This document shows positions 33,871 to 56,334 of a stretch of 64,000 nt of DNA, in pieces. Both the position numbers and the translations under genes were made by a program. The notes below the pieces were generated by a model. That model was not told the origin of the DNA. It ran no database searches and worked only from the letters and a program-made list of their open reading frames with translations. Position 1 is the first letter of the stretch, and the number at the start of each line of letters is the position of its first letter. The stretch lies in the NCBI GenBank assembly GCA_015068735.1, contig SVJW01000002.1, forward strand, positions 11,438 to 75,437. The letters are read 5' to 3'. The DNA is from Oscillospiraceae bacterium. GTDB lineage: Bacteria > Bacillota > Clostridia > UMGS1883.

Positions 33871-33933
33871 TATTTTGTTTGACAAGGGGGCCGTTCTTTG
33901 AACGGTCCCCAAAATAAAAACAAGGAGAAAACC

Positions 33934-34248
33934 GTGAAACGATTTATTTTATACGCAGAAATAAAGCCTGAGAAACTTCAGGAATATGTAGAACTTCATA
34001 AAAACGCGTGGCCCGAAATTTTAGAGATAATTTCGGAAAGTAATTACCATAATTATTCAATCAGTATCCGCGGAAATCAGCTGTATACTTACTACGAGTA
34101 TACGGGAAACGATTATGAAGCAGATACAAAGAAAATGAACGAAAACCCCATAATGCAGAAGTGGCATACCTTTACAAAACCTTGCTTTATCCGTGATGAA
34201 AAAGGCAATGCCTATAAAGAAATGGAAGAGATTTTCTACAGCCTGTAA
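33934..34248 (+). CDS. rhaM: L-rhamnose mutarotase (RhaM/YiiL family)
   Basis: 104 aa ORF from a GTG with an AAGGAG RBS. It matches the RhaM size and pattern (KRFILYAEIKPEKLQEYVELHKNAWPEILE...YSISIRGNQLYTYYEY). Confidence 0.65.
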   Translation: MKRFILYAEIKPEKLQEYVELHKNAWPEILEIISESNYHNYSISIRGNQLYTYYEYTGNDYEADTKKMNENPIMQKWHTFTKPCFIRDEKGNAYKEMEEIFYSL

Positions 34249-34263: not shown

Positions 34264-37200
34264 ATGAATTTTATGGAAGCAATGAAGTCGCCTAAGCCCC
34301 AGTTCAGCCCCGCAGCGTTCTGGTTCTGGTACGGTGAGCTTAATCCCGACACTTTGCGAAAGCAGATAAATATGATGGTAGAGCAGGGTGTATATAACGG
34401 CTTTATGCACGCCCGTGCCTATCTTAAAACTCAATACCTTGAAGATGATTGGTGGAAAGCAATTTCCGCTTGTATAGATGAAGGCAAGAAAACAGGGTTT
34501 TATCCCTGGCTGTACGATGAGTATGCATGGCCCAGCGGAACAGCCGGCAGTACTTTTCAGTACGGCTATCAGAAGCCTTCCCGCACTCTCTCAAAAGGCG
34601 AGTGCAATATGGCAAAATACCTTTCTATAAAGAGCTATGCCTCAAAAGAAGAGCTTTCCAAGGAAGCTTCTTTTGAAAATCTTGTTTCGGCATTTTATAA
34701 AGACGGAGAAAACTGGGTACATACAACAAACCTTTCCGATTGGAAGGGCGAGGTAATGGCATTTTACAGAAACTTCACTCCCCGATTTGTGGATTACCTT
34801 AATCCTGAAACTGTGAAAGAATTTATAAACTGTACCCATGAAGAATATAAAAAGCGTTTTGGTGAGAATTTCGGAAATATTGTACCGGGTATTTTCTTTG
34901 ACGAAATCTTTATGGTTGGCTGGATGCCCTGGACAGAAAAATTTGCGGAAGAATTCCAAAAACGCTGCGGCTATGACATTGTTTCAAAGCTGTATGTTCT
35001 GAGAGATGCAAAAGGAAAAGACGACCTTAAAGTCCGCAATGATTACTACGAAGTTGTTGCACAGCTTTATGAAGAGGGCTTCTTTGTACAGATTTCCGAT
35101 TGGTGCAAGAAGAACAACCTTGAACTTACAGGTCATATAGAAGAACATTTTGAACGCCATCCCGGAAGACAGGGTCACTTTTTCAATAACGAAAGACATC
35201 TGGACATCCCCGGTGCAGACTGTCACGATTACAGATACCGCTTCCCCCGTAAAATCACTTACAGAGAGCCTAAATTTGCCGTATCTACCGCCCGTGCATA
35301 CGGCAAAAAGCGTATGATGTCGGAAGCATTCGGCGGTGCAGGTTGGGGATGTTCCCTTCAGCAGTATAAACGCGGAATGAATACTCTCGGTGCAATGGGT
35401 ATCAATATGGTTACTCTGCACGGATTTTATACCGAGTGTGTCAGTCAGGGAGAACAGGCGGACTGGCCCTGCAGTTTCTTCTTCCAGAACCCTTACTGGA
35501 GATATTTCAAGCACCTTGCAAATTACATGAACAGAATTTGCTATATGAACACACAAGGAACTCCCGTTGTGGAAGTAGGCTTATATTATCCTATTGAGGA
35601 AATGAGAAAGCTGACCGTTGACGGATTGTTTTTCAACGGTTGTGAAACGCTTAATGACGCGTGGAACAACGCAATGAATTCCCTTCTTGAACACCAGATA
35701 GATGTGGATATAATTGACGAAGTATCACTTCTCAGAGCGACTGTTAAAGACGGAACTATCAGCGTTGGCTCGCAGAACTTTAAAGTACTGGTATTCCCCG
35801 ATATAGCAGAATTTTCTGATGAACTCAGGGAAAAACTTGACGAATTCCAAAAATCAGGCGGAAAAGTAATATATTATGCTTGCGAAGACGGCAAAGACGG
35901 TGCGGTTAAGACCGAAATGCTGCCTAAGGCGGTAAACAACGTACTTACACCCGATGTGGGAGTTCTTTTCGGTGAACGGGACAATTTATTTGTAAATCAC
36001 CGCAAAATCGAAGATAAGGAAGTATATTTCATCGGCAGCAGTACACCGAGAAAGAGAAGTCTTATCCTTAATCTCCGGGAAAAGGGCTCCGTACAAAAGC
36101 TCAGCCCCGATAACGGGGAATTATCTGATGTTTATTCCCGCATAACCGAAAACGGCACCGAGGTGCGCCTTTCTCTTGAAGAGGACGAGGCGTGCTGGCT
36201 TATTGTGGATGCAAACAGAGCGGAAAAAACTCTGCCGGAAGAATATGTTGCAGAAGAGTTTGTCGTAGCAGGAAAATGGGAATTTCTCCCCATAGATTCT
36301 GCAATTAAAGATGAAAAACAGCTGGAAATCAATGCTACTGAGCTGGATATACCTCTTGCTGCATTTTCTTCCGAGCCTCATCCTGACGGCAGACAGATAA
36401 GAATTAAAAATACAGAAAATGAAGACGGCTTCTGCGGAAGACACCTCAGCCTTTGGAAAGCAAACTGGATAACACGCAGATTTGACTGGGTAGATATTTC
36501 GATGAAAGAAAACCTTTACTGCAGAAAAGAATTTGTCCTTGATGAAAAGCCTGAATCTGCACGCATTTGCCTTGCAGCGGTAAATGAATGGACCATGTGG
36601 ATTAACGGACAAAAGGTTGCAGAGTCAGAAGATGCGAGAACTGCTTCATTTGTAGACATTACCGAATTTTTGACAGCAGGAAAAAACCTTATAGCAATCA
36701 GCGTCAGAAATAAAACTACCATGGAACATTTCAATCTGCTTTCTCTGGAATACCTTCGTCCCGAGGAAATGATTTCCCTTATTGCACAGGCAGAAATCAA
36801 GGTTGGTGACGAATTCATCACAATCGCAACAGATGAGTCGTGGCAGGTAAATGAAGCGTATATTGAGGGTTGGCAGCAGGTTTCATACTGCCCCGAAGTA
36901 CACTACAGATATTCCACAAATACACCTGAATTCGGAGATGGCGATGACAAATGGAGCCAGGCTTGGAAACGAGGCTGTCCTCCAATGCTTCCCTGGGGTG
37001 ATATGCCCCTCTTTGGCGAAACTGTAACCTATCCGCAGAAAATCAGTTACAGTATAGTGCTTCCTGCAGGAACTTCCAAGATATATTATCCCGATATGTC
37101 GGGACGCGACATTAAAGTTACGGTTGACGGTATGGCGATGCCTTGGAAAAACGGAGAATGTTTTATAAAGCCCGACGGAAATACTCACCAGATGCAGATT

Positions 37201-37671
37201 TCAATGGTTGCAGAAAACGGCAAAGACGGACTTCACAGTAATATTAAGGTACAGGTAATTCCTTTCCGTCACGCTCTTTGTGACTGGAGACTTCACGGAC
37301 TTAAATGGTATGCCGGATTTACTCGCTACCGCAATACAATGAATTTGAAGAAAAAGCCCGGCCGCTATATTCTTAACCTTGGCAAGGTTTCTTTCCAGAC
37401 AGAGGTTTGGGTAAACGGTGTGAAAGCCGGCGAAAAAGTATGGGAACCCTATCAGCTTGATATAACAGATTTTTTAAGAGACGGAGAAAACGATATTGTT
37501 GTAATCGTCTCAAACTCAGCCGCAGTTGAAAGACAGTATATGCTGGTTGACGAGGGAATGGCTCTCGGCTGGAACAGATATTGGAACGACGATAATATCC
37601 AGCGCGAGGGTGAAAATCTGGTGTCGGGTCTTCAGGGGCCCATAATGCTCGACAGACGAAGCGAGATTTAA
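34264..37671 (+). CDS. Large cytoplasmic glycoside hydrolase, GH106-like (putative alpha-L-rhamnosidase) with C-terminal GH2-type sugar-binding beta-sandwich domains
   Basis: 1135 aa ORF with no signal peptide. The N-terminal signature PQFSPAAFWFWYGELNPDTLRKQINMMVEQGVYNGF resembles the GH106 N-terminus. C-terminal jelly-roll repeats occur (…LNLGKVSFQTEVWVNGVKAGEK…). It is next to rhaM. Confidence 0.45.
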   Translation: MNFMEAMKSPKPQFSPAAFWFWYGELNPDTLRKQINMMVEQGVYNGFMHARAYLKTQYLEDDWWKAISACIDEGKKTGFYPWLYDEYAWPSGTAGSTFQYGYQKPSRTLSKGECNMAKYLSIKSYASKEELSKEASFENLVSAFYKDGENWVHTTNLSDWKGEVMAFYRNFTPRFVDYLNPETVKEFINCTHEEYKKRFGENFGNIVPGIFFDEIFMVGWMPWTEKFAEEFQKRCGYDIVSKLYVLRDAKGKDDLKVRNDYYEVVAQLYEEGFFVQISDWCKKNNLELTGHIEEHFERHPGRQGHFFNNERHLDIPGADCHDYRYRFPRKITYREPKFAVSTARAYGKKRMMSEAFGGAGWGCSLQQYKRGMNTLGAMGINMVTLHGFYTECVSQGEQADWPCSFFFQNPYWRYFKHLANYMNRICYMNTQGTPVVEVGLYYPIEEMRKLTVDGLFFNGCETLNDAWNNAMNSLLEHQIDVDIIDEVSLLRATVKDGTISVGSQNFKVLVFPDIAEFSDELREKLDEFQKSGGKVIYYACEDGKDGAVKTEMLPKAVNNVLTPDVGVLFGERDNLFVNHRKIEDKEVYFIGSSTPRKRSLILNLREKGSVQKLSPDNGELSDVYSRITENGTEVRLSLEEDEACWLIVDANRAEKTLPEEYVAEEFVVAGKWEFLPIDSAIKDEKQLEINATELDIPLAAFSSEPHPDGRQIRIKNTENEDGFCGRHLSLWKANWITRRFDWVDISMKENLYCRKEFVLDEKPESARICLAAVNEWTMWINGQKVAESEDARTASFVDITEFLTAGKNLIAISVRNKTTMEHFNLLSLEYLRPEEMISLIAQAEIKVGDEFITIATDESWQVNEAYIEGWQQVSYCPEVHYRYSTNTPEFGDGDDKWSQAWKRGCPPMLPWGDMPLFGETVTYPQKISYSIVLPAGTSKIYYPDMSGRDIKVTVDGMAMPWKNGECFIKPDGNTHQMQISMVAENGKDGLHSNIKVQVIPFRHALCDWRLHGLKWYAGFTRYRNTMNLKKKPGRYILNLGKVSFQTEVWVNGVKAGEKVWEPYQLDITDFLRDGENDIVVIVSNSAAVERQYMLVDEGMALGWNRYWNDDNIQREGENLVSGLQGPIMLDRRSEI

Positions 37672-37687: not shown

Positions 37688-39811
37688 ATGATAAAAGAAC
37701 AGCGATATGAGTTTAAAAAAGACCTTTTACAGATTCATAAGAAGGACAGAAGGGATTTTTCTTTAAAGCCCGAAGAAAATGAATTTACAGTACCGGAGGG
37801 GCTTTGTATAGTCCTTCCGGAAAAATACGATTCCGTTGTGGAAACTGCTGCATGGGATTTTGCTGACTATATGTTAAAATCTATGGATCAGGCGGCAATG
37901 GTTACGAAAAAAGCTTCTTCGGAAGCGTGTCTGAAACTCTCTTATAACAAAGACCTTGGCGATGCTTCGGGATATATGGGTTATCGCATTACCGTTACTG
38001 ACAGCGGTATAACACTGGAGGGTTACGACAGCGTAGGAATTGCACAGGGACTTTACTTTTTAGAGGATTTAATGAATTTAAGACGTGCGCCTTTCCTTGA
38101 AAAGAAAATAACTCAGAAAAAGGCGCTGTTCTCACCACGTTTTGCTCAGTCACCCTTTGGTATGTTTGAATACAATGACGAATGCCTTTCTTATATGGCA
38201 CATCTTGGGTATGATGCAATTATGCTGTGGATAGACGGATTAAATATCAATCACCGTGGCGAATACATTGATATGTATCTTCTGTGCGAACGGGCAGAAC
38301 GCTACGGAATAAATGTTTATATCCAACTTTACAGAGATCACAGCGCTCATCCCGATGATCCCGGTGCAGAAGAGTTTTACGATAATCTCTACGGAAAAAT
38401 CTTCAAAGCCTGCCCTAAAATCAAGGGCGTGGAGCTTGTAGGCGAAGCAAACCATTTTCATAGCAAGGACCCCGATTCCAGAATAGGAAAAGCTCCCTTG
38501 TCGGCTAATTTTGAGGATAATATTCCCACGGGTAAAGTTACACCCGGATTCTGGCCCTGCCGCGACTATCCTCAGTGGATATCATTGATTAAAAAATGTA
38601 TTTCCAAATACCGTCCCGATGTGGATATTGTATTTTGTACATATAACTGGAGCTGGGCTCCGGAGGAAGAAAGACTGCGTCTGATAGAAAATCTTCCCAC
38701 AGATATTACTCTTCTTTCCGCTTGGGATGTATGCCAGCAGTTTGATATAGGAAAAGCAAAAGGCGATACAACAGACTATTCACTTCGCCAGACAGAGGCA
38801 AGTGACTACTTTGCAAGTGAGGCGCGTGCTGCTAAAAAACGCGGAATAAAAGTGTATGCAAATACCGAAACAGCAGGTCTTACATGGGACTTCGGTGTAA
38901 TTCCTTACGAGCCTATGCCGTACCAATGGCTTAAGCGTTTTGAAAGCATCGTAAAATCTCACCAAGAGTGGGGCGTATGCGGGCTTCTGGAATGTATACA
39001 TTACGGATTCTATCCGTCATTCATCAGCGACCTTGAAAAATGGGCGTTCTTCACTCATGAAGAAAACCTTACAGATGTACTTCATCGCATATTGAAGAGG
39101 GATTTCGGTGAGAACAGTTTTGATAAAGTAAATGAGGCTATGTTAAAATGGAGCGAAGCTATCTCTCACGCCACAGCAAGTAACGAAGATCAGTACGGTG
39201 CCTTCCGTGTAGGACCTTCCTATCCCTTGTGGGTGGCTGATCCCAGAACCGATATATTCGGCGGTTATCCGGAAAGCGGACGCATTCCTACGGAAAACAA
39301 TGCAATGTTCGGTAACATGATTTATAATCCTGCGTACACTCCCGACATGGGCTTTAACAGAAATAACTCTATGCCAGGGCTCAGATTGTATGAGGAAATG
39401 AAAGAAATTGAAATAATGCGCGACTTACTTTCCGAGGGTATAAATCTTTTAGAGAGCGTTCCCAATCCCAACGAAAAACTGTTGCGTGTACTCAATATAG
39501 GAAAGTTTATGTACAGATCCTGCATAACAGGAATAAATGTTAAAAAACTCTTTGTTATGAGCCAGGAGCTTAACATTGCTTCCGATGCACAAAAGATGCT
39601 TGATATTATTGATAATATGGAGAAACTTCTTCTTGAAGAAAAGAAGAATGTTGAAGAAACTATCCCTGTAGTACAGGCGGATTCCAGACTCGGTTGGGAA
39701 CCCAGTATGGAGTATCAGGGGGATGAAAAATGTCTCAGATGGAAATTAAGACAGCTTGACTACGACCTTAACTACACACTTAAAAAACACCGTGAGAGTT
39801 GTAAACTGTAA
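37688..39811 (+). CDS. Hypothetical cytoplasmic protein (707 aa), possibly a TIM-barrel glycoside hydrolase-like enzyme; no confident family assignment
   Basis: Long ORF with an RBS, coding periodicity and no TM segment or signal peptide. The region containing DAIMLWIDG and GINVYIQL is weakly suggestive of a (beta/alpha)8 barrel. Confidence 0.4.
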   Translation: MIKEQRYEFKKDLLQIHKKDRRDFSLKPEENEFTVPEGLCIVLPEKYDSVVETAAWDFADYMLKSMDQAAMVTKKASSEACLKLSYNKDLGDASGYMGYRITVTDSGITLEGYDSVGIAQGLYFLEDLMNLRRAPFLEKKITQKKALFSPRFAQSPFGMFEYNDECLSYMAHLGYDAIMLWIDGLNINHRGEYIDMYLLCERAERYGINVYIQLYRDHSAHPDDPGAEEFYDNLYGKIFKACPKIKGVELVGEANHFHSKDPDSRIGKAPLSANFEDNIPTGKVTPGFWPCRDYPQWISLIKKCISKYRPDVDIVFCTYNWSWAPEEERLRLIENLPTDITLLSAWDVCQQFDIGKAKGDTTDYSLRQTEASDYFASEARAAKKRGIKVYANTETAGLTWDFGVIPYEPMPYQWLKRFESIVKSHQEWGVCGLLECIHYGFYPSFISDLEKWAFFTHEENLTDVLHRILKRDFGENSFDKVNEAMLKWSEAISHATASNEDQYGAFRVGPSYPLWVADPRTDIFGGYPESGRIPTENNAMFGNMIYNPAYTPDMGFNRNNSMPGLRLYEEMKEIEIMRDLLSEGINLLESVPNPNEKLLRVLNIGKFMYRSCITGINVKKLFVMSQELNIASDAQKMLDIIDNMEKLLLEEKKNVEETIPVVQADSRLGWEPSMEYQGDEKCLRWKLRQLDYDLNYTLKKHRESCKL

Positions 39812-39839: not shown

Positions 39840-41252
39840 ATGAAAATAGTTATAGGCTCGCTTCAGTGCGAGGGAAATACTCTGACACCAATCAAAACCA
39901 CATTTGAGGATTTTGATTATGCATCGGGAGAAAAAATGTATGAAAAACTTAAGGATGTAACCGCATACTTTAAAAGCCATGAATGTGACCTTGTGCCTAC
40001 AGTTTATGCTCGTGCCCTCCCGGGAGGAACGGTTGTTCTCAGGGACTTTTTAAGGCTTGCAAATGAGCTTGTTGATGCAATTCCCAAGGGAGGAATTGAC
40101 GGCGTATGGTTATATCTTCACGGAGCAATGCACGTGGAGGAAATTGGCTCAGGTGAGGAATATGTACTTAAAAAAGTTCGCGAAAAAGTAGGATACAACA
40201 TTCCTATCGGTCTTGCTATGGATTTTCATGCGAATAATTCAAATAATATTGCACGTCTTGTGAACTGTGTCGCAGGCTACAGAACTGCGCCTCACAGTGA
40301 CCGTGAAGAAACACAGATAAGGGCGGCAGAAATGCTTTTAAACTGTATTGATAAAAAGATTATGCCCAGACCTCAGATGACCCGTGCCGACGTGGTGATT
40401 TGCGGTGATGCGGTACAGACAGCCGTAGAGCCGTTAAAGGGTATTCTTGATATGGCAAGGGAAATGGAAAGAACTATCCCAGGCCTTATGTGTGCGGAAG
40501 TATTTAACGGTCAGTCCTGGGTTGATGAGCCTTATATGGGCCCCAGCTTCATTGCTACTCACGAAACCGATCCTGAGATTGCATTAGAGTGTGCAGAAAA
40601 ACTTGCAAAGGAATTTTACGAAAAAAGATATGACTTTGTTATTCCTCATGTAGAAGTTGAGGAGGGAATAAAACTTGCTATGGAGGCAACTGAGCCGCAG
40701 GTATTCTTATCCGATGCCGGTGACAACACAACGGCAGGGGCGACCGGTGATAATGCCTATGTGCTTAACCGACTTATGAAAGCAGGGGCAAAAGATGTCC
40801 TCCTCGCAGGAATTACCGATGCTGAAGCGGTGGACATTTGCTATAACGCACAAATCGGTGATGAGCTGACGCTTACAGTCGGCGGAAAGTTGGAGGAGAA
40901 AAGCGAATCGGCTACAATTACCGGAAAGCTTATCCATAAAGGCGATATGGTAAATTATACAGGCGGTGCACCCATTCCGTCTGCAACTGTGGACTGTGGC
41001 GATATAACGGTTATTATAACAAAGGACCGTGCGCCCTTGTGCCGTCCTGATATATTGGATTCCATCGATTCAAACTGGAGAAAGTTTAAAATCGTTGCAA
41101 TAAAACTCGGTTTCCTGTTCCCTGAACTTGCAAAAGAAGCGGAGAGGGTAATTCTCACATTTTCTCCGGGAAATTCAACACCAAGACTTCAGGATATGGG
41201 AATGAAAAACATCAGAAGACCCATGTTTCCTCTGGACGATAATTTTATGTAA
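39840..41252 (+). CDS. M81-family metallopeptidase, MlrC-like (DUF1485 + MlrC C-terminal domain)
   Basis: 471 aa ORF from ATG 39840 (MKIVIGSLQCEGNTL...). The N-terminus and overall pattern match MlrC/DUF1485 proteins. The track ORF start at 39756 overlaps the upstream gene. Confidence 0.55.
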   Translation: MKIVIGSLQCEGNTLTPIKTTFEDFDYASGEKMYEKLKDVTAYFKSHECDLVPTVYARALPGGTVVLRDFLRLANELVDAIPKGGIDGVWLYLHGAMHVEEIGSGEEYVLKKVREKVGYNIPIGLAMDFHANNSNNIARLVNCVAGYRTAPHSDREETQIRAAEMLLNCIDKKIMPRPQMTRADVVICGDAVQTAVEPLKGILDMAREMERTIPGLMCAEVFNGQSWVDEPYMGPSFIATHETDPEIALECAEKLAKEFYEKRYDFVIPHVEVEEGIKLAMEATEPQVFLSDAGDNTTAGATGDNAYVLNRLMKAGAKDVLLAGITDAEAVDICYNAQIGDELTLTVGGKLEEKSESATITGKLIHKGDMVNYTGGAPIPSATVDCGDITVIITKDRAPLCRPDILDSIDSNWRKFKIVAIKLGFLFPELAKEAERVILTFSPGNSTPRLQDMGMKNIRRPMFPLDDNFM

Positions 41253-41267
41253 AAGGGAAGAATTTGT

Positions 41268-42407
41268 ATGATAAAAGCACTTGTTAATACAAATATAGTT
41301 CTTGAAAACGGTATCCTCTGGGACGGAATTATTTTAATATCCGAAGACAGAATTTTAAAAATAGGTAAACCTGAGGATGTAGAAATTCCGCAGGATGCTG
41401 AAATAACAGATTGTGGCGGTGCATACGCAGGGCCGGGATTTGTAGATATTCATGTTCACGAGGGCGGTGGATTTTCCACTTGTTTTGAACCTGAACGTGC
41501 GGCTGAGCACTTTCTCCGCCACGGTGAAACTACGATTCTTGCAACTCCGTCATACGACCTGAATTTTGACGAAATGGTAAGAGCAATCAGAACTATCAAG
41601 GAAGCAATGCCCAAAGCACCCACAATAAAAGGAATGTATATGGAAGGACCTTATATGAATCCGAAGTACGGCTCTCACGCATACCAAAACCCGTGGAGAC
41701 ATCCAATCTGTGAAGAAGAGTTTAAAACGTTGGTTGACGAAGCCGGAGAAGATGCTAAAATCTGGGCAATTGCACCTGAAAGGGAGGGAATACTTCCTTT
41801 CCTTGAATATGCAAGAAAAGTCAATCTCGATACGGTTTTCGCAGTAGGACACAGCGAAGCACTTCCATCGCAGATTCGTGGGTTGGGAAAATACCGCCCC
41901 ACACTTCAGACACATTCAATGAATGCTACGGGAAGGCTTCCTGTAAGCGGCGGTACACGCAGTTTTGGTCCTGATGAATACTGCTTTAAAGAGCCTGATG
42001 TTTACTGTGAGCTGATAAGTGATTCTTTTGGAATTCATGTTAATTCTGAAATGCAACAGCTATTATTACATACAAAAGGCATACACAGGATAGTCCTGAT
42101 AACAGACTCAACAGTGTATGACGAGCCTGTTCCGGAGAAGTTTGCCCATGTGACCGACCTGAATTTTGATGCGGAGGGCGGCATAGCAGGAAGTAAACTT
42201 ACTATGGATATAGCTTGCCGCAATATAATGACACATACTAATTGCGGTATTGCACAGGCGTTTATTATGGCTTCTTTAAATCCTGCAAAAGTAATAGGTA
42301 TGGATGATGAAATAGGCTCTCTGGAAGTTGGAAAAAGAGCTGACATTGTACTTGTGGATGACAGATTTAATGTGAAGCAGGTCTTTCTGGGAGGAAAATT
42401 GGTATGA
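41268..42407 (+). CDS. Amidohydrolase-superfamily enzyme, NagA-like (N-acetyl-amino-sugar-6-phosphate deacetylase family)
   Basis: 379 aa ORF with the metal-binding motif FVDIHVHEGGG. It has the small N-terminal beta-sandwich and TIM barrel pattern of NagA and an NagA-like length. Confidence 0.55.
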   Translation: MIKALVNTNIVLENGILWDGIILISEDRILKIGKPEDVEIPQDAEITDCGGAYAGPGFVDIHVHEGGGFSTCFEPERAAEHFLRHGETTILATPSYDLNFDEMVRAIRTIKEAMPKAPTIKGMYMEGPYMNPKYGSHAYQNPWRHPICEEEFKTLVDEAGEDAKIWAIAPEREGILPFLEYARKVNLDTVFAVGHSEALPSQIRGLGKYRPTLQTHSMNATGRLPVSGGTRSFGPDEYCFKEPDVYCELISDSFGIHVNSEMQQLLLHTKGIHRIVLITDSTVYDEPVPEKFAHVTDLNFDAEGGIAGSKLTMDIACRNIMTHTNCGIAQAFIMASLNPAKVIGMDDEIGSLEVGKRADIVLVDDRFNVKQVFLGGKLV

Positions 42408-43768
42408 ATAAATTAAATGTCGGATTTTCAAAAGCAAATGTAAATCCGCCCTTAGGTATAGGCGTCAGCGGATATTATATTCCAAGATTTGCAAAAGGCT
42501 TTTTAGACGATCTTGAAGTGAGAACACTTGCATTTTCTTCGGCTGATAAAAAGATATTGATGATAAGTCTTCCTGTTTGTTTAATAAGCAAAGAAAAGTG
42601 CTTGGAATATGCAGGAATAATTGAAGAAAAAACAGGCGTTCCCAAGGAAAATATATTTATATCTGCAACGCATACGCATAATGGAGGACTTCTTGAAGTG
42701 ACAGATGCGTTTGAAGCAGATGAAACCCTAATAAACTCATATTCCGAATTAATGGGAAGCAGAGTTGTCGATAGCGCCGTTATGGCACTATCTGACCTTG
42801 CTCCTGCAAAAATGGGATATATTACAGGTTATGCTCCCGAGAGGGTTGCGTACATAAGAAGATATAAAATGAAGGACGGGTCTACGCTTACCTGTCCGCC
42901 AATTAACGATCCGAATATCGACTATCCCATAGGCGAGCTTGATCAACGAGTTCATATTCTTCGCTTTGACCGTGAAAACAAAAAAAGCGTAGTTCTGGTA
43001 AACTACGGACTTCACGCAGACACAATCAACGGAGAAATGCTCTCCTCCGACTGGCCTCATTGGATGTACAAAACGATAGACGCGGCGCTTGACGGTGTGG
43101 AAAGTATCTTCTTCAACGGTGCAGAAGGCGATGTGGGAAGTACACACGTATTCCCCGAAGGCGGAGACATGAACGATACAGAGATAAGCTTCGATAACGA
43201 AATGAAAAGCCCCGGAATGGCTCGTTTTGTAGGTCGTGCTATTGCAGGTACTGTATTACAGGTGTATGATAAAGTTCATTACATAGACGTTGACAGTATA
43301 GATATTATAAGGAAGACCGTTTCAGTTTCTGCAAATGTACCTTCTCCCGAGGACCTTCCTCTCGCAAAAAAGTACAAGGAACTTCACGAATCGGGAAGAG
43401 ACAACGAAATTCCGTATACGGCTATGCAGCTTACCACCGTTGTAGCAGAGGCTCTGCGTATGTGCAATATGGAAAACAGCCCCAAAGAGATTCAGCTTGA
43501 TATTACAGGCGTAAGGATTGGTGACGTTGCATTTGTCGGTATTCCCGGAGAGCCTTTTACAGAGATAGGCGTTGAGATTAAAAAAGCCGACGGATACAAA
43601 ATGATTATGCCCTGCGGTCTGACAAACGACTATGCAGGATACTTCCCTGTAAAAGAGGCCTTTGATGAGGGCGGATACGAAGCTCGCACATCCAAGTACA
43701 AGGGCGATGTGGCGGAAAAAATCATTGAAGGCGGAAAGGCAGTTTTAAAAGAACTTTTAAAAGGTTGA
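42404..43768 (+). CDS. Neutral/alkaline ceramidase-like hydrolase (cytoplasmic)
   Basis: 454 aa ORF whose N-terminal region matches ceramidase_alk, including the conserved zinc-site motif SATHTHNGG (family consensus SATHTHSGP). It overlaps the upstream gene by 4 nt (ATGA). Confidence 0.5.
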   Translation: MNKLNVGFSKANVNPPLGIGVSGYYIPRFAKGFLDDLEVRTLAFSSADKKILMISLPVCLISKEKCLEYAGIIEEKTGVPKENIFISATHTHNGGLLEVTDAFEADETLINSYSELMGSRVVDSAVMALSDLAPAKMGYITGYAPERVAYIRRYKMKDGSTLTCPPINDPNIDYPIGELDQRVHILRFDRENKKSVVLVNYGLHADTINGEMLSSDWPHWMYKTIDAALDGVESIFFNGAEGDVGSTHVFPEGGDMNDTEISFDNEMKSPGMARFVGRAIAGTVLQVYDKVHYIDVDSIDIIRKTVSVSANVPSPEDLPLAKKYKELHESGRDNEIPYTAMQLTTVVAEALRMCNMENSPKEIQLDITGVRIGDVAFVGIPGEPFTEIGVEIKKADGYKMIMPCGLTNDYAGYFPVKEAFDEGGYEARTSKYKGDVAEKIIEGGKAVLKELLKG

Positions 43769-43778
43769 TAATCAGCAT

Positions 43779-44648
43779 ATGAAAAAAATAGCATTGATAC
43801 AAATTATATTGGCAAGCATATTGTGGGGAACATCAGGAATTTTTGTTCACTATCTGGCACCTTACGGGTTCACTTCGTTGCAGATGACCTTTTTCAGAAG
43901 TGTGGTTTCCTGTATATGTTTGGCTTTATACATTTTAATTTTCAATAAAAAATTATTTAAGGTAACATTAAAACAATTACTGCTCTTTACAGGAAGCGGT
44001 TTGTCGTTCTTTCTTACGGCGACCTGTTACTTTTATTCCATGCAGGCTACATCAATCTCAACAGCTGTTGTTCTGATGTATACAGCTCCAATATTTGTAA
44101 TGATATATTCGGTAATGTTTTTAGGGGAGAAACTTAATCCCAAAAAAGCTGTTGCCGTTTTGACTATGTTTGTGGGATGCGGACTGGTATCGGGGATAAT
44201 AGGTGGGCTCAAATTTGATGCAATGGGCATTGTAATAGGATTTATGTCGGGAATAGCGTACAGCGCATATAATATTCTGACAAAAATCGAGATGAAAGGC
44301 AACAGTAACCCATTGTCAGCAACGCTGTATTGCTTTTTATTTGCCACATTGATAGGGGCTTTCACCTGTGGCATTGGGGACATACCGCAAAGTATAGGAA
44401 AAGCTCCTCAAATCACTGTGCCGCTTGTTATAGGAATGGGGCTTGCGACTTGTATATCACCTTATTTCTTATACACTCTGGCAATGAGGAAAATTCCTGC
44501 AGGAACGGCATCCTCCCTTGGAATTATAGAGCCCATGGCAGCTACTCTTTTCAGTGTTATAATATTTGGAGAAACATTGTCGGTAGCTTCTGTCAGCGGA
44601 ATTGTGTTGATACTCGGTGCAGTATTTTTGCTTAGCAAAAGTGATTAA
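43779..44648 (+). CDS. EamA/DMT-family transporter (10 TM)
   Basis: 289 aa ORF with ten hydrophobic helices arranged as two EamA repeats. Confidence 0.75.
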   Translation: MKKIALIQIILASILWGTSGIFVHYLAPYGFTSLQMTFFRSVVSCICLALYILIFNKKLFKVTLKQLLLFTGSGLSFFLTATCYFYSMQATSISTAVVLMYTAPIFVMIYSVMFLGEKLNPKKAVAVLTMFVGCGLVSGIIGGLKFDAMGIVIGFMSGIAYSAYNILTKIEMKGNSNPLSATLYCFLFATLIGAFTCGIGDIPQSIGKAPQITVPLVIGMGLATCISPYFLYTLAMRKIPAGTASSLGIIEPMAATLFSVIIFGETLSVASVSGIVLILGAVFLLSKSD

Positions 44649-44686
44649 AAAAGGTCGTTTAACCGCAAGGTTAAACGACCTTTTTT
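44647..44686. terminator. Bidirectional intrinsic terminator shared by the convergent EamA and MATE genes
   Basis: AAAAAA GGTCGTTTAACC gcaa GGTTAAACGACC TTTTTT is a perfect 12-bp stem with an A-run on one side and a T-run on the other. The MATE stop codon lies inside the stem. Confidence 0.75.
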
Positions 44687-46035
44687 AGTTTCGATATAGC
44701 AGGTATGTATGTAATAAATAAAGTTATGATTGACAGAATCCATCCGATGGGCCATACAAGATAAAGGAATGTGAGATTGGGGAAGAGCGGAAAAATTACA
44801 TATACCCATATAAATCTTAATATACACATATACACGAGTGTCGCAATTGTGGGGATAATCGGTTTTCCCATCCCCCTCAGAGTTCCGCACATTACTTCAT
44901 TTATACCGCAAATAAAATATGTACTTGAAATAATAATCATTTTTTGCCTTGAATACTCGATGACAGCAGGTGTGGATGACATAATAGAGGATAGTTGCCT
45001 TGAAAAGATTGCAGAAAATGCACCGAAAGTTCCACCGAAAAGCGCGGTAATCATTATAGCATTCCATACAACCTGCTTTACTCTTTGTATGTTTTTTGCA
45101 CAGATATTCTGTGCCACATATGGCGTTACGGCAAGTGCCGGAGCGTAAGAGATCTGATATAAAATTCCGTCAAACTGGTTGGCTATGGATATTCCCGTGG
45201 TAGCATCGGCACCAAACCCGTTAACTGCTGTGGTGATTACTACATTTGCCAGGGAATATAACGAACTTTGCAGTCCTGCAGGAACTCCGATAAATAAAAT
45301 TTCTTTAAGCTCCCGCGCTGAAAAACGGAGCTTCTTAAATTCAAAAGAAAAAGTATTTTTGTTTTTAAGTAATGCCCTGAATGCGAGAAAGGAAGAAACC
45401 AGATTTGCAATAATCGTGGAAAGTGCAACACCTTCTACCGTCATATCAAGCTGTGAAACAAAAATAACAGTGAATACGACTTTTATTACTCCGCCAAGGA
45501 GCAGGTAGTACATAGGCCTTTTCGTATCTCCCGTGGCACGGAGTATGGCGGCACAGAAGTTATACATCATCATCAGAGGGATGCCGTAAAAATATATTTT
45601 AAAGTATACCGTAGCATCCCGTAAAAGATCATGGGGGCAGTTTGTCATTCTCAAAAATTTTTCCGAAAATGTGACACCTACCGCCATCAGAATCAATCCG
45701 CCTGTTATAGCAAGTAATATAGATGTCATAACTGCTTTGTTGGCAAGGGCTTTATTGCCTGCGCCCAGTCTTTTTGCAACAACTACGTTTGCACCGGCAG
45801 AAATTCCTATAAGCAGACTGGTGAAAAGCGTTATAAGCATTCCGCAAGCTCCTACAGCACCGACAGCCCTGTCGTTGGAAAACCACTTAAGAGCCGTCAT
45901 ATCCATAATATTAAATAATGTCTGCGCAACGTTCATAATCATAATAGGGATTGACATTGCAAGCAGTCCTTTAAAAATTGAGCCGGACAGCATATTTGTT
46001 GTGCTTTTTCTCATTGTAATCGCCCCTTTATGCAA
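44671..46035 (-). CDS. MATE-family efflux transporter
   Basis: 454 aa ORF with 12 TM helices and a MatE repeat pattern. Confidence 0.8.
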   Translation of the reverse strand: MHKGAITMRKSTTNMLSGSIFKGLLAMSIPIMIMNVAQTLFNIMDMTALKWFSNDRAVGAVGACGMLITLFTSLLIGISAGANVVVAKRLGAGNKALANKAVMTSILLAITGGLILMAVGVTFSEKFLRMTNCPHDLLRDATVYFKIYFYGIPLMMMYNFCAAILRATGDTKRPMYYLLLGGVIKVVFTVIFVSQLDMTVEGVALSTIIANLVSSFLAFRALLKNKNTFSFEFKKLRFSARELKEILFIGVPAGLQSSLYSLANVVITTAVNGFGADATTGISIANQFDGILYQISYAPALAVTPYVAQNICAKNIQRVKQVVWNAIMITALFGGTFGAFSAIFSRQLSSIMSSTPAVIEYSRQKMIIISSTYFICGINEVMCGTLRGMGKPIIPTIATLVYMCILRFIWVYVIFPLFPNLTFLYLVWPIGWILSIITLFITYIPAISKLKKVV

Positions 46036-46121
46036 ATAATTGCATTATTCATAGAATTATAACATAATATTTTTAGAATATAATACGCTTTTTCATAGAA
46101 ATACTTGCATAAAAGATAGAA

Positions 46122-46865
46122 TTGATATATTATGATGTTGGTGATAGTATGAATTATTCAATTAACAGCGTAATCACAGGAAGTCATCCGCATTACCATA
46201 CAGGATATGAGGTTATTGTCGGCATAAAGGGAAACGGCACTTTTTTTATTGAAAATAAGAAAATAGACTTTTATCCCGGAATAATTGTAATTGTTCCGCC
46301 AAATACTCCGCATAGCTCAGTTTTTGAGGGGGAGAATGAGAGAATCTATGTAAACGGAGAATTTGGTCATGTTTTTAACGCGCGTTCGCCCATTGTTATT
46401 TATGATAATTCGCAGAAGGAGGGTATTACGCTTGCAAAAATGATTTTCCGAAACCGATATGCCAAAAACGAGTATTTATCTGCTTTGATTACGGCATTTG
46501 CGCATTTTTTGATGCAAAATCTGAAAAACGACAGTGAAATAAACCTTGCGGTAAAAGAAATAGTAAATGAAATTACGGATTCTTTTTTTGAAAGCACTTT
46601 GGATTTAAAATACCTTCTTAATAAAAGCGGTTATGCAGAAGACTACATGAGAGCAAAATTCAGGGAAGTTACAGGGTATACCCCTGTTGAGTTTTTAACG
46701 AAGGTAAGAATAAATCAGGCGTGTAGCCTTATTGATATGTACGGAAATTCGCTTTCGCTTTCAGAAATAGCGGAAAGATGCGGATACACCGATTATGTGT
46801 ATTTCTCCAGAAAATTCAAGATGATAACAGGTGTGTCCCCAAGAGAATTTATGAAGTTGAAGTGA
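46122..46865 (+). CDS. AraC-family transcriptional regulator (cupin + HTH)
   Basis: The N-terminal cupin resembles AraC_binding. The C-terminal HTH is IAERCGYTDYVYFSRKFKMITGVSPREF. An alternative start at 46149 is possible. Confidence 0.75.
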   Translation: MIYYDVGDSMNYSINSVITGSHPHYHTGYEVIVGIKGNGTFFIENKKIDFYPGIIVIVPPNTPHSSVFEGENERIYVNGEFGHVFNARSPIVIYDNSQKEGITLAKMIFRNRYAKNEYLSALITAFAHFLMQNLKNDSEINLAVKEIVNEITDSFFESTLDLKYLLNKSGYAEDYMRAKFREVTGYTPVEFLTKVRINQACSLIDMYGNSLSLSEIAERCGYTDYVYFSRKFKMITGVSPREFMKLK

Positions 46866-47507
46866 AAGAAAAAGAAATGCACCCAATAAAGGCGGTTTAT
46901 CCCTAAGACCAACCGCCTAATATGAGTGCGTTCTTTTTAGACGAAGTTGCCCTCTCAGGGTTCGTAGTGCAATAACAGGGAGTTTATCTCTCTTCTTTTT
47001 ATTTTATTTTTTGCCAAACAAAATCCGAACAAATGCCTATATTAAGGGAAACAATGTGTTTTTGCCTTTAGTTTTCATTTATGCACGCCATTTTTTGAAG
47101 AGAATGAAATTTTGTAATACGTTCTGTAAGATAACAATTTATCTCTTTGAGTTCTATAGAGAGCGTCAAATATCGTTAAAAAACGCCCGAAAACGCCTAA
47201 AACAGTAGGTTTTGTAAATCTTACTGTTTATTTTTTTGCCATAACGTGTGGAAAATGTGTAACTTCCTATATAGTGTTGTGGCAAATTTGTGGCAAGTTT
47301 TTACATATCAACATCAGTTTCATCGTCAATGATGGGAGAAGGACTAATAGCCTCACATAAAGTCATACTGCTATCTATTATTAAAAGTCAAGTTTCGTAA
47401 ATGATGCTCTTTTATACAATCAACTATAAATCAACGAACAAACCCCTTATTTATAGCCGTTTTAAGATCAATTTTGGGATCCCAGTCAACTATGAGTCAA
47501 GTAAAAA

Positions 47508-48971
47508 TCAAGCCCAGAAAGGAAGATATTTTCTGTTTTTATCCGATGTGGAATCCGGAGATGTTTTAATTAAACCTATTTCGCATGTTTCGTTAAGCAA
47601 CCTGGAAATCATAGAACTATTTTTACTATCAATATTAAATCTTTCTCTTAGTGATGCGTTTGTCATAACATCTCTATTTACGCGTTTAATACAAGCATGG
47701 AGATAGCAAGCTCTATATCTATCTTCTTTTGTCATCTTAGCATACTCTTTATGTGCATATAGAATTACTTTTGTATGATCATTGTAAATTTCGATTTCTG
47801 GAGCAGGTAATTGATAATATTCTGTCTGGAATACAACTTTATCATATCCGCTACCTCTTTCTTCACACACGCCAATTCTTCTCATAAAAGATGCTAGTTT
47901 TTCGTTTCTTGAAACAGGGGGATGGTCAACAAAGCGAGCCGTATCTATTAACGGAAGTCCAGGATTTGTTATTTCAAGTCTATCCTCAAATATTTCAATC
48001 ATGGGACTTGTTCCCTGCATAAAAAAGTTTTGATGTATTATTGCATTTGCTACAAGTTCTCTGATTGCAATTTCAGGATACATGGGCACAACTTTACGAA
48101 TTGCTTTGCCCAAGATTTCGTTGTTAGGCAATAGATTGCTTATATAATCAATCAATCCGGTGAAACCATTTGCATAACCTTTCGTTCCGACTTGTTCTTT
48201 GCTTGCAGAACTAACTCGGTCTGTTCCTTCATATTTAATCACTCTTACAGATTTTCGTTCTAGCGAAGGGAAATCGGAGAGCCTTTTTGCGAATAGAATA
48301 GCACCTAAATTTGTTATATTATAGTTTCCGGTTTCGCATTCGGAAATCATCCCATCATTCAGCAAGGCTTCTATAATACGATCTCTATCGCTTGGTAAAT
48401 CTAAGGATAACATGTCAAAATATGCTGAATAGTCAAGTTCTCTGAGCAAAAATTCGCCTGATACATTTTCCATTGCGATCATAGTTTCAAATGGCTTTTT
48501 TGAAAAAACAGCCCATAACTCGCGCTCTGTGTCAGGAAAATCTTTTAATTTTTTCTTATAGGAGTCAATTCTTATATAGTCGATTGACTTGAATTTAACA
48601 GGACTTGAAAAAGCTCGGCTTATTTCCAAAAGCACCACTTTCTTCTCATTGATTTGAGTCGTATGAAAATAGAATTGAACCTGTGGATCCAATTGCGTAC
48701 TTATCCATAGATCTAGACCTTGGTTTCCGATTTTTTCGGATTGAGGATCAAATGATGTACCAACGACATCGTGTGTTTTGTCATCTATGCCCCAAATCAT
48801 AAAAGCATGTTCCTGATTGAACAATGCTGCGGTATTGGATAAAGCGCTGATATATTCGCCTATCTCTTGTGGATTACAATTATTAGTTTTGAATTCAATC
48901 CAGGGCGATTCGTATTTATGTTCTCTTGCTTCGTTAATTATTAAATCAATCATATTAACATTGTAGGGCAT
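47508..48971 (-). CDS. AlbA_2 (Schlafen-like 'divergent AAA') + HATPase_c_4 ATP-binding protein; candidate abortive-infection/defence or regulatory protein
   Basis: The N-terminal ESPWIEFKTN motif is the AlbA_2 ESxxxE[FY]K signature. The C-terminal region (IRELVANAIIHQNF...) is HATPase_c_4-like. The second ATG (MPYNV...) has a GGAGG RBS. Confidence 0.6.
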   Translation of the reverse strand: MPYNVNMIDLIINEAREHKYESPWIEFKTNNCNPQEIGEYISALSNTAALFNQEHAFMIWGIDDKTHDVVGTSFDPQSEKIGNQGLDLWISTQLDPQVQFYFHTTQINEKKVVLLEISRAFSSPVKFKSIDYIRIDSYKKKLKDFPDTERELWAVFSKKPFETMIAMENVSGEFLLRELDYSAYFDMLSLDLPSDRDRIIEALLNDGMISECETGNYNITNLGAILFAKRLSDFPSLERKSVRVIKYEGTDRVSSASKEQVGTKGYANGFTGLIDYISNLLPNNEILGKAIRKVVPMYPEIAIRELVANAIIHQNFFMQGTSPMIEIFEDRLEITNPGLPLIDTARFVDHPPVSRNEKLASFMRRIGVCEERGSGYDKVVFQTEYYQLPAPEIEIYNDHTKVILYAHKEYAKMTKEDRYRACYLHACIKRVNRDVMTNASLRERFNIDSKNSSMISRLLNETCEIGLIKTSPDSTSDKNRKYLPFWA

Positions 48972-49172
48972 AACATCAACCTCCATCGACTATACAATAA
49001 CATATTTTTTTAAAACAGTCAATATTATTATATCTTTCAATCAAGTAAATTATACTGGATTATTGGGAGTTTGAAGAAAACTGTGTTAAAATTTGCATTT
49101 AATTTCTATTTGCAGTCAAGTAAATATTAAATAAATAATCAAACGTTCTTTGTTTCCGATAAAAAACAGAAT

Positions 49173-50249
49173 TCAACACCAATCCTCATACAATTCCAAT
49201 GGTGTAGGAATATAACCTTGGTCAAACAGTTTAGCTGCTTTGCTTGTTGCGGTTACATAGTTGGTTTCTATATTGGATAGCATCCAAATCATACGGTTCA
49301 CTGCCTTTTTATCCATCCATTTTTTATATGTTGAAATTGCTCCAGCGACGCTTCTCGTATTGTTAGCATATTCTATAAACTCTTTTAAAAGTTCTGTGTT
49401 ATCGGGTTTGTATTCTCCCATATCGATTCTTTTCAAAGCTTCTGAAAGTGTGCAGATTTTTCCATCATTACATATCCTTGATAGATAGTATCGGAATAAA
49501 TAGTCTCCTATTTGCTGGGAAGAATCCATAAAGTCTTGAATGCTCTTCAATTTGAATTTCTTCTTTAATTCGCTGACTTTACCCTCCATACAGCGAATCT
49601 CTATACGAACTATTTTCTCTGTACGCTCTATTTCGGATGCGGGAAATATAGCTTTATTTTTGCCCTTTTGTTCTTTAATCATTTGTCGCTGTTTGTTATA
49701 TATTGAAACCGCTATATAGTTATCGTTGTATACTGTAAAATCATCTTTCATGGGTTTTGTTCGTTTTGACTTTTCATTATATACTTCATAAAGCATAAGG
49801 TGAGGAGGGATATTTGCTCTTTTCATTGTTTTTATATATGCTTTGACTTGCTCCTGGTTTGCAAGTTCTGCGTTAATACAGAAATCGATTCTTCGCATTT
49901 TGCAATCTTCAAGCAGGGGGAGAAGCTTGCATTTATTATGAAGAATGAAGTTCACCTCTTTTTCAAGTAGATCATAATCGTTTGTATCAAAAAGCCCGAC
50001 AAAATCATGATTATCCATGACTCGTCGGGCTGAAATTCTATATATAATATGGTAGGCGTAATAGCCTTTCTTTTTGTTTTTGGTTATAAACATTTTTATT
50101 ATGATCCCCTGTTTGGAAAGCCCCCAGTAACTCATTCCGTTTGATTCTTTTTTCCACTTGTCGGGATCTTTTGTTTTAAGTGTATCTTGAATTAATTTAA
50201 AATCATCACCGCAAAGGGTGTGGCTTACTTCAAATGTATGTATTGTCAT
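49173..50249 (-). CDS. Rep_trans-like replication initiator/relaxase (rolling-circle type), putative
   Basis: 358 aa from the ATG with a GGAGGA RBS (MTIHTFEV...). The motifs RIDFCINAE, VSIYNKQ and IVRIEIRCMEG resemble the Rep_trans RxDxxxD, YDK and RxExR blocks. This assignment was made from memory of the family motifs. Confidence 0.35.
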   Translation of the reverse strand: MTIHTFEVSHTLCGDDFKLIQDTLKTKDPDKWKKESNGMSYWGLSKQGIIIKMFITKNKKKGYYAYHIIYRISARRVMDNHDFVGLFDTNDYDLLEKEVNFILHNKCKLLPLLEDCKMRRIDFCINAELANQEQVKAYIKTMKRANIPPHLMLYEVYNEKSKRTKPMKDDFTVYNDNYIAVSIYNKQRQMIKEQKGKNKAIFPASEIERTEKIVRIEIRCMEGKVSELKKKFKLKSIQDFMDSSQQIGDYLFRYYLSRICNDGKICTLSEALKRIDMGEYKPDNTELLKEFIEYANNTRSVAGAISTYKKWMDKKAVNRMIWMLSNIETNYVTATSKAAKLFDQGYIPTPLELYEDWC

Positions 50250-50372
50250 TGTAAATTCCTCCATAAGTATATTTATATAAATACGCATTTTTATATATGT
50301 AATAATATGATTTATAGCTAGTAATTTAATGCTATAAACTGTAATTATTATTGCATTATCCATCCCCTCCCA

Positions 50373-50391
50373 AGCTTATATAGCTTATATA
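50373..50391. repeat. Tandem 9-bp direct repeat AGCTTATAT x2 about 130 bp upstream of the Rep_trans-like gene (possible iteron or origin remnant)
   Basis: agcttatat agcttatat aaa is seen directly in the sequence. It is flanked by a partial inverted repeat CCTCCC...GGGGAGG. Confidence 0.3.
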
Positions 50392-50477
50392 AACATTATC
50401 CTACCGTGGGGAGGATTGTGAATCATTATTATAAATATGTTATGAAGTTTTGAAATTAAATTTTATTCTAAATAAAG

Positions 50478-50510
50478 GCGTTGCGGAAAATGCCGCAACG
50501 CTCTTTTTTC
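50478..50510 (+). terminator. Orphan rho-independent terminator on the plus strand (GCGTTGCGG-aaaatg-CCGCAACGC followed by TCTTTTTT) with no obvious upstream plus-strand gene
   Basis: A 9-bp GC-rich stem and a T6 run. The sequence upstream contains only an 11-codon ORF. Confidence 0.5.
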
Positions 50511-51858: not shown

Positions 51859-51879
51859 TATTAAAGGACAAGTGATACT

Positions 51880-54195: not shown

Positions 54196-54234
54196 TAAAA
54201 ATTATTTATATATAAAATTTCAGGAGGAATTATT

Positions 54235-55248: not shown

Positions 55249-55350
55249 AAAATAAAGAAATCTTCTGTCAAATCCGGCTTTCACAGGTCTGATTTGACAG
55301 AAGATTGATATATCAAGTTGATAAGACAAACGGTCAGGGGGGTATAGGTT

Positions 55351-56298: not shown

Positions 56299-56334
56299 TT
56301 TCGTAGGAGTGTATAACAAGGGGAGGGTTGGTTT

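Follow-up and report, generated by a model that had tools for sequence, protein, structure and literature searches.

Deacetylase-assisted glycoside breakdown, in which deacylation and hydrolysis act on one imported oligosaccharide, is represented by the archaeal Dac and GlmA chitobiose pathway and by ChbG and ChbF of Escherichia coli. The window analysed here, a stretch of 64,000 nucleotides from an Oscillospiraceae bacterium (GCA_015068735.1, contig SVJW01000002.1, positions 11,438 to 75,437), contains three consecutive genes for predicted amide-bond hydrolases, namely an M81 (MlrC-family) metallohydrolase, a NagA-like amidohydrolase and a short neutral-ceramidase-fold zinc amidase (hereafter ceramidase-like), preceded by a gene for an unannotated glycosidase-like protein of 707 residues (p707). 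The closest described relatives are MlrC (7ylq) and 3iuu for the M81 enzyme, NagA/AgaA (TIGR00221; 3egj, 2vhl and 1ymy) for the NagA-like enzyme, and the neutral/alkaline ceramidases (human nCDase, 4wgk; Pseudomonas aeruginosa CDase, 2zws/2zxc) for the ceramidase-like enzyme. For p707, they are GH138 (BT0997, an alpha-galacturonidase acting on rhamnogalacturonan II), the GH67 and GH115 alpha-glucuronidases, and GH84 O-GlcNAcase. The trio of hydrolase genes is a local, lineage-specific join of separate modules and not a conserved unit; the non-random association holds for the NagA-like/ceramidase-like pair.

Is the trio found elsewhere? Two sets of loci were compared, comprising 80 genome loci anchored on ceramidase-like relatives (61-73% identity) and 80 metagenome loci anchored on M81 relatives (M81 identity 32-68%). 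Around the ceramidase-like anchors, M81 was found in 0/80 loci, the EamA transporter gene that follows the trio in the window in 1/80, and a NagA-like gene in 58-59/80. Around the M81 anchors, the ceramidase-like and NagA-like genes were each found in 0/80. The complete trio was observed only in contigs near-identical to the window, and EamA was retained in these contigs and in the single related locus. An earlier note on this DNA had taken the three amidases as a functional unit and had itself named a lack of conservation in related genomes as the outcome that would speak against the idea; this lack is what the co-occurrence check returned. A locus with a 78%-identical ceramidase-like orthologue (L178) was found to retain p707 and the NagA-like gene and to carry a second ceramidase-like gene, without M81. 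The related loci are mostly from metagenome-assembled genomes (MAGs), many of them from ruminant, deer, yak and horse gut, and a protein identical to the window's is annotated in a Ruminococcaceae/Oscillospiraceae MAG.

The pair behaves differently from the trio. A NagA-like gene lies immediately upstream of the ceramidase-like gene, on the same strand, in 47 of the 72 evaluable loci. Measured in 51 pairs, the distance between the two genes falls between -8 and 31 nt in 49, and 13 pairs overlap. Tandem expansion was also observed: 10 loci carry two or more NagA-like genes, and in L027 three NagA-like genes precede one ceramidase-like gene. Several pairs can occur in one genome, as in MAG RGIG1655 with three loci. 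The flanks of the pair were surveyed by taking one open reading frame (ORF) on each side where the contig allowed, which gave 137 proteins. Because the flanks are very variable, the pair is regarded as a portable two-gene unit. A role as a fixed component of a polysaccharide utilization locus was considered and dropped, since the census gave no dominant partner family, the commonest being AraC with 7.

The informative neighbours of the pair share an amino-sugar and acid-sugar theme. A divergent NagB-like deaminase gene adjoins the ceramidase-like gene in 7-9/80 loci, and a profile of this neighbour searched against the PDB matched glucosamine-6-phosphate deaminases in 12/12 cases (best E-value 8.5e-10). 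Other neighbours include GFO/IDH/MocA oxidoreductases, a NanA/DHDPS-type lyase, and GH28-like, GH29 and GDSL enzymes. Gene order is GH88, ceramidase-like and GntP permease in L093, and p707, CBM9-like, NagA-like, two ceramidase-like genes and then UxaB, UxaA and UxaC in L178; in L092, the pair and p707 are accompanied by AAC(3)-type and Eis-type N-acetyltransferases. The pair probably removes N-acyl groups from sugars, not from lipids or toxins. A 312-residue protein cluster (C4) adjoining the pair in seven loci gave no Pfam or PDB match. Separately, a CBM9_2-like protein of about 198 residues (41% identity) was seen beside p707, NagA-like and ceramidase-like genes at L178 8215-8811 and L092 6611-7210. 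Searches of the available literature returned nothing on these ceramidase-like, M81 or ASRT subfamilies, nor on a ceramidase-fold/NagA-like pairing. The superfamilies themselves are known; what appears to be new is a cytoplasmic ceramidase-fold family that lacks the tail and is regularly paired, in sugar contexts, with NagA-like genes.

The gene that links M81 to the pair, and that is common to both modules, is p707 (37688-39811), which the earlier note had passed over. Homologues of p707 with 40-42% identity adjoin the pair in L014, L017, L021, L092 and L178. In L087/L088, a 72%-identical M81 gene directly follows p707, with rhaM, an 86%-identical GH106-like gene and GH88 in the same locus; upstream of rhaM, this locus also holds a ceramidase-like paralogue (45% identity). 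In L090, M81 is preceded by a gene remotely homologous to p707 (hhalign 98.8%). Because p707 co-occurs independently with the pair and with M81, both modules are tied to this one upstream gene. M81 was recruited on its own in this lineage and the pair is a conserved two-gene unit; therefore, the trio is a lineage-specific fusion of a [rhaM, GH106-like, p707, M81] module with the portable [NagA-like, ceramidase-like] module. The features of the locus are as follows.

12828-15068, plus strand: AraC-type sensor/regulator (PF12833/PF00165), at the head of the co-directional array
15208-16746 (binding protein) and 16770-18602 (permeases), plus strand: CUT1 sugar ATP-binding cassette (ABC) importer (PF01547, ORF layout), at the array head
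20735-21610, plus strand: CE4-type (NodB-type) polysaccharide deacetylase, 291 aa (PF01522, 30.5 bits), N-terminus without a signal peptide
33898-34248, plus strand: L-rhamnose mutarotase RhaM (PF05336, 79 bits)
34264-37671, plus strand: GH106-like alpha-L-rhamnosidase-type enzyme, 1135 aa, cytoplasmic (PF17132, 93 bits, plus GH2_N and Bac_rhamnosid_N domains)
37688-39811, plus strand: p707, unannotated cytoplasmic glycosidase-like protein by predicted fold, 707 aa
39840-41252, plus strand: M81 (MlrC-family) metallohydrolase, cytoplasmic, 470 aa from the ATG at 39840 (PF07364 and PF07171)
41268-42407, plus strand: NagA-like amidohydrolase of a divergent N-acetylhexosamine-phosphate deacetylase family, 379 aa (PF01979, TIGR00221)
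42404-43768, plus strand: short neutral-ceramidase-fold zinc amidase (ceramidase-like), 454 aa, its start overlapping the NagA-like stop by 4 nt
43779-44648, plus strand: EamA/DMT transporter, 289 aa, the last gene of the operon (two PF00892 repeats, TIGR00950)
44646-44687, bidirectional: intrinsic terminator with a 19-bp stem and flanking T/A runs, between EamA and a convergent MATE gene

The co-directional gene array of this bacterium, an inhabitant of the herbivore gut, runs over about 30 kb of the plus strand (15208-44648). Its front half encodes the CUT1 importer, several large proteins whose N-termini resemble signal peptides (two of them with SLH domains), the CE4 deacetylase and a GDSL esterase; its back half encodes proteins without signal peptides, namely RhaM, the GH106-like enzyme, p707 and the three hydrolases, and then EamA. 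The spacings between p707, M81, NagA-like, ceramidase-like and EamA are 28, 15, -4 and 10 nt, which, together with the terminator, suggest that the region is co-transcribed as an operon. Promoter-like hits within the operon numbered 28, fewer than the 33.3 expected from shuffling, and were disregarded. Much of what the earlier note had described at this place was borne out: the three hydrolases and EamA are encoded by plus-strand ORFs at the tail of a glycan operon, the rhamnose mutarotase and the GH106-like enzyme lie upstream with the scores listed, and the four family assignments hold, those of M81, the NagA-like enzyme and EamA by hidden Markov model and that of the ceramidase-like enzyme, whose model score is sub-threshold, with the help of structure. 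The cytoplasmic location given there also agrees with the N-termini, as none of the three hydrolases has a signal-peptide-like N-terminal segment when the sequences are judged by eye, without a predictor. The EamA assignment is based on 126 bits for the two PF00892 repeats and 112 bits for TIGR00950.

The ceramidase-like enzyme is only remotely related to its described relatives. It scores 22.6 bits against PF04734, below the gathering score of 32.1, and its best PDB sequence match has an E-value of 5e-4; some homologues carry precomputed PF04734 matches. The AlphaFold2 (AF2) model has a predicted local distance difference test score (pLDDT) of 81 and a predicted template-modelling score of 0.84. 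With this model, only neutral ceramidases pass an E-value of 1e-3 in a Foldseek search of the PDB, the best being 4wgk (1.2e-23), followed by 2zws and 2zxc, with a template-modelling (TM) score of 0.69. The family call holds because remote sequence similarity, predicted fold and conserved active-site residues agree. The SATHTH motif noticed earlier is present at residues 87-92 (window 42662-42679), and profile alignment pairs its THTH, together with E383, Y413 and Y425, with ceramidase residues. H90, H92, R152, H204, D206, D243, S246, E383, Y413 and Y425 are invariant among 85 sequences, and invariant residues are found in the motifs SATHTH, YGLHAD, GDVGST, GIPGEPF, GYFP and GGYEA. The likeness to human and P. 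aeruginosa ceramidases therefore covers the catalytic-domain fold (Foldseek E-values of 1e-23 to 3e-20), the HxH of SATHTH, a third invariant histidine (H204), Glu383, Tyr413, Tyr425 and a GDVxS-type motif (GDVGST, 242-247).

There are also differences. Identity to neutral ceramidases is about 15%, with a score below the Pfam gathering score as given above. Neutral ceramidases are about 650-700 aa long and the ceramidase targets aligned here have 630-690 residues, whereas the window protein ends at residue 454, just past the catalytic-domain match, and lacks the C-terminal tail domain, signal peptide and membrane anchor. Its N-terminus, MNKLNVGFSKANV, contains no signal peptide. Unlike a neutral ceramidase gene, the window gene lies in sugar-metabolism contexts, closely spaced after the NagA-like gene. 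Many charged residues of the protein are invariant, R147, R152 and R153 among them, and its substrate is probably polar or anionic, not a lipid. The short proteins form a large superfamily, with 17110 clusters at 50% identity in a profile search, mostly of 430-460 aa. One further feature was observed in residues 242-267 (window 43127-43204), GDVGSTHVFPEGGDMNDTEISFDNEM, which are largely invariant across the family (alignment A1); residues 243-267 are the sole stretch modelled with pLDDT below 50. This segment may serve as a mobile lid or as a contact surface for a partner, for instance the NagA-like protein.

The NagA-like enzyme matches TIGR00221 over its full length (E-value 4.6e-49, 167.4 bits), below the equivalog cut-off of 225.65, and also matches PF01979. 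Its ten best PDB hits are all NagA, aligned end to end. The residues H62, H64, E126, H195, H216, H257 and D280, corresponding to the HxH/Glu/His/His/His/Asp set of NagA/AgaA, are kept in all aligned residues of 70 family members, H62 and H64 being counted in 69 of the 70 owing to one gapped row. R231, retained in 63/70, aligns with the Arg of the GREPG loop, which belongs to the Arg/Tyr loop that binds the 6-phosphate in E. coli NagA. Unlike NagA/AgaA, the window protein carries a 4-residue insertion in the loop that bears the presumed phosphate-binding residues, and the Tyr position is not retained. Its partner is a ceramidase-fold gene rather than nagB, and it often occurs in 2-3 tandem copies.

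The M81 enzyme is assigned strongly and unambiguously, with 242 bits for PF07364 (cut-off 22.8) and 122 bits for PF07171 (cut-off 27.2); its PDB sequence matches include 3iuu (E-value 5.7e-29) and MlrC (7ylq, 2.4e-22), with which it shares this two-domain architecture. The zinc centre of MlrC is formed by E56, H150, D184, H186 and H208 (PMC12474180). All five residues have counterparts in the window enzyme, E11, H94, D128, H130 and H152, which are invariant among 20 homologues (alignment A3), and the spacings of 34, 2 and 22 from H94 through D128 and H130 to H152 are identical to those of MlrC. Unlike MlrC, the window enzyme scores 89.7 bits against the microcystinase model NF041767 (cut-off 999) and is thus not the MlrC equivalog, and family scans of the window found no MlrA-, MlrB- or MlrD-type genes. 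On these alignments, all three hydrolases have intact catalytic residues and appear to be catalytically competent.

More distant M81 relatives belong to a different neighbourhood. In the M81-anchored loci, M24 (Creatinase_N and Peptidase_M24) was found in 32/80, ASRT (PF07100) in 22/80, RhaM in 10/80 and a Mac/hexapeptide acetyltransferase in 9/80. M81, M24 and ASRT form a conserved string, seen with M81 relatives of 33-67% identity, that holds down to about 33% M81 identity and is often followed by RhaM and the acetyltransferase. These M81 relatives adjoin CUT1/CUT2 sugar-type ABC transporters, not the NagA-like/ceramidase-like pair. The string was seen outside the window, in L089-L091, L096-L132 and other M81-anchored loci; elsewhere in the window there is no M24, ASRT or second copy of the pair, and the window lineage has p707 upstream of M81 instead. 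A paper on ASRT gene contexts does not mention the string. The literature offers a sugar-binding prediction for ASRT. A role of M81 with M24 on hydroxyproline-rich glycopeptides (arabinogalactan protein/extensin) is speculation.

The p707 protein gave no Pfam family above cut-off, no other sequence-family match and no PDB sequence hit. Its AF2 model (pLDDT 88.5) consists of a GH20b-like N-domain, a TIM barrel and a helical bundle, and a Foldseek search returned GH138 BT0997 (E-value 1.5e-17), followed by GH67, GH84 and GH115. The likeness to these families extends to the three-domain architecture and fold (1.5e-17 to 1e-13); with identity of 10-13% and TM of 0.42-0.56, it is a likeness of fold only, taken from a model. 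The family has more than 1000 homologues of about 700 aa, all unnamed and without a Pfam domain, and is on the modelled structure probably a separate, unclassified glycoside hydrolase family. Three p707 contexts (L175, L176 and L177) were chosen irrespective of whether the pair or M81 was present, and an AraC regulator and an amidase were found beside p707 in 3/3: a PIG-L protein with NagB-like and class II aldolase genes in L175, a creatininase-family protein in L176, and three tandem short ceramidase-like genes in L177. More generally, p707 was observed nearly always to adjoin an AraC regulator and one or other metal amidohydrolase (of the PIG-L, creatininase-family, ceramidase-like, NagA-like or M81 type).

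This arrangement resembles Dac/GlmA and ChbG/ChbF in that a cytoplasmic glycosidase gene lies beside a metal-dependent de-N-acetylase gene, here p707 with varied amidase neighbours. It is unlike them in that p707 is not GH35 or GH4, while among the amidases none is YdjC and PIG-L occurs only in some cases. An unclassified GH-like family accompanied by varied amidases seems to be a new observation, as searches of the available literature gave no paper on point. In L177 (11154-19308), the three ceramidase-like genes after p707 are mutually 82-86% identical and 24-26% identical to the window's; downstream of them come a GFO/IDH/MocA gene and two genes of the ADP-ribosylglycohydrolase family, and the block adjoins phage portal/terminase genes.

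What could such a region do? The evidence can be read, with doubt and confidence in equal parts, as describing a cytoplasmic finishing stage that strips N-acyl/amide substituents from imported rhamnose- and uronate-containing oligosaccharides. What each enzyme does, in which sequence and on which substrate, we infer from domains, families and fold. Signal-peptide and SLH-anchored proteins would attack a polymer of rhamnose and uronic acid, and the CUT1 ABC transporter would import the fragments. The cytoplasmic GH106-like enzyme would then remove L-rhamnose, to be anomerised by RhaM, and p707, for which the model gives the fold, might release an acidic or N-acylated sugar. The NagA-like and ceramidase-like enzymes would de-N-acylate an amino or amino-uronic sugar, probably anionic, for deaminase/uronate pathways, while the target of M81 would be an amide formed with an amino acid or peptide on fragments of this type. 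Finally, EamA could move the released product across the membrane.

The NagB-like, UxaABC, GH88/GntP and N-acetyltransferase neighbours speak for such a finishing stage. Several points weigh against it. The GH106, GH138-like and GH88/105 content suggests pectin-type polymers, which are not known to carry amide groups. A p707 gene is adjacent in only about 5/80 ceramidase-anchored loci, and the flanks of the pair are highly heterogeneous, with 145 Pfam families among the 137 proteins. The pair is often free-standing, and it could have a general housekeeping role in amino-sugar/cell-wall turnover that is not specific to a glycan. The operon lacks a sugar kinase gene, even though the Arg that aligns with the phosphate-binding Arg of E. 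coli NagA is retained in the NagA-like enzyme. In addition, co-transcription is deduced from gene spacing and the terminator.

A broader version of the finishing-stage reading is offered tentatively, as a possibility that we regard as doubtful. Gut Clostridia may possess a so far unrecognised cytoplasmic pathway for acidic glycans decorated with amides (for example, N-acyl amino(uronic) sugars or amino-acid-amidated uronic acids), in which M81, elsewhere together with M24 and ASRT, would be a glycan-associated amidase and not a peptide peptidase. This route would be built from p707, from short tail-less ceramidase-fold amidases shifted from lipid to sugar, and from divergent NagA paralogues. 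Amide-decorated acidic glycans of this kind are found in microbial capsules and wall polymers.

The variable flanks of the pair would also be expected if the juxtaposition were coincidental, with M81 belonging to the rhamnose/p707 module and a generic, self-contained pair having landed with EamA at the 3' end of the operon, the three enzymes sharing no substrate. In agreement with this, the anchored loci of the two modules show zero overlap, EamA is essentially confined to near-identical contigs, and the pair is located at the very 3' end, shortly ahead of the terminator. However, p707 co-occurs independently with the pair (the five loci at 40-42% identity) and with M81 (L087/L088 and, remotely, L090), the L087/L088 locus carries its own ceramidase-like paralogue upstream of rhaM, and the intergenic distances of 15 nt and -4 nt are too short to house a promoter of its own for the pair. 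Coincidence is considered rather unlikely. The free-standing occurrence of many pairs among housekeeping genes has another possible explanation, namely scavenging of muropeptides or wall glycopolymers. Here, p707 would be an exo-N-acetylhexosaminidase/muramidase, the ceramidase-like enzyme would cleave the lactyl-L-Ala amide, M81 would degrade the D-amino-acid stem peptide, the NagA-like enzyme would deacetylate GlcNAc-6-P, and the rhamnose enzymes would act on rhamnose-rich wall polysaccharides. The p707 fold also matches GH84 hexosaminidases, and the NagA-like Arg at the presumed phosphate-binding position is kept. Microcystin-derived peptides contain D-Glu. The one characterised M81 enzyme, MlrC, acts on these peptides (PMC12474180), and SIS/GKRP-type (MurQ-like) and BadF-type kinase genes lie within about 8 kb of the pair in L092. 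The MurQ/kinase neighbours, however, occur in one locus only and on the opposite strand, the UxaABC, GntP and GH88/105 neighbours point to uronates, and M81 relatives keep company with sugar ABC transporters, M24 and ASRT rather than cell-wall genes. Multiple paralogous pairs or tandem arrays per genome are also hard to square with simple recycling, and cell-wall scavenging is judged improbable.

The names of the families, a ceramidase fold, the MlrC family and a DMT exporter family, are what would suggest a dedicated three-amidase pathway, either for a glycolipid or ceramide-like lipid or for detoxification of a microcystin-like or non-ribosomal peptide with EamA as the exporter. Such a pathway is the least supported of the explanations and very improbable. 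The trio is not conserved, the ceramidase-like enzyme has no tail domain or signal peptide and carries many invariant charged residues, the microcystinase score of M81 lies far under its cut-off, and every informative neighbourhood is carbohydrate-related. The earlier note had proposed catabolism of an N-acylated amino sugar or a glycolipid-like compound, with detoxification as an alternative. Its amino-sugar half gains from the NagB-like neighbours and from UxaB/UxaA/UxaC in L178; its glycolipid/ceramide half is disfavoured by the shortened, signal-less protein and its sugar contexts, and the detoxification alternative by the microcystinase score (89.7 vs 999) and by the sugar-type ABC transporters beside M81 relatives. 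Plant glycosyl inositol phosphorylceramide or glycosylphosphatidylinositol-anchor substrates are speculation.

Other features of the window were also observed. The CE4 deacetylase in the middle of the operon is a fourth deacylase-type enzyme, which the earlier note did not mention. The mechanical ORF of the 923-aa protein begins at a TTG and shares 68 nt with the end of the CE4 gene (window 21543-21662), and its true start is probably further downstream. Neither this nor the 881-aa secreted protein gave informative PDB or Pfam matches, so that the polymer is not identifiable from them. A second sugar locus (window 50875-63454) contains three GFO/IDH/MocA oxidoreductases, an enolase-superfamily protein, an AraC protein, a xylose-isomerase-like TIM protein and a paralogous CUT1 ABC transporter, as well as a carbon-nitrogen hydrolase (55351-56298), a NagB/6PGL-family protein (58042-58806) and a second GH88/105 (58836-59957). 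It is thus another combination of amidase, amino-sugar and unsaturated-uronate enzymes in the same genome. Between the two sugar loci, window 46000-52000 has a G+C content of about 0.34, compared with about 0.40-0.44 in the flanks. It holds an AraC gene, an SLFN/AlbA_2 and HATPase_c_4 gene (47508-48986, minus strand) and a 396-aa ORF without a family, and may be an inserted segment.

Overall, the three-amidase arrangement itself is mostly lineage-specific and reflects ordinary gene shuffling. Beneath it lie three large, functionally uncharacterised families whose active sites are intact, the short ceramidase-fold proteins, their NagA-like partners and the p707 family, which are abundant in herbivore and human gut Clostridia and are good experimental targets. 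If the ceramidase fold acts on sugars here, "ceramidase" or sphingolipid labels assigned automatically in gut metagenomes would mislead, and glycans bearing amides would emerge as an unexplored substrate class. This would apply equally to M81 enzymes, which are now viewed only through microcystin degradation.

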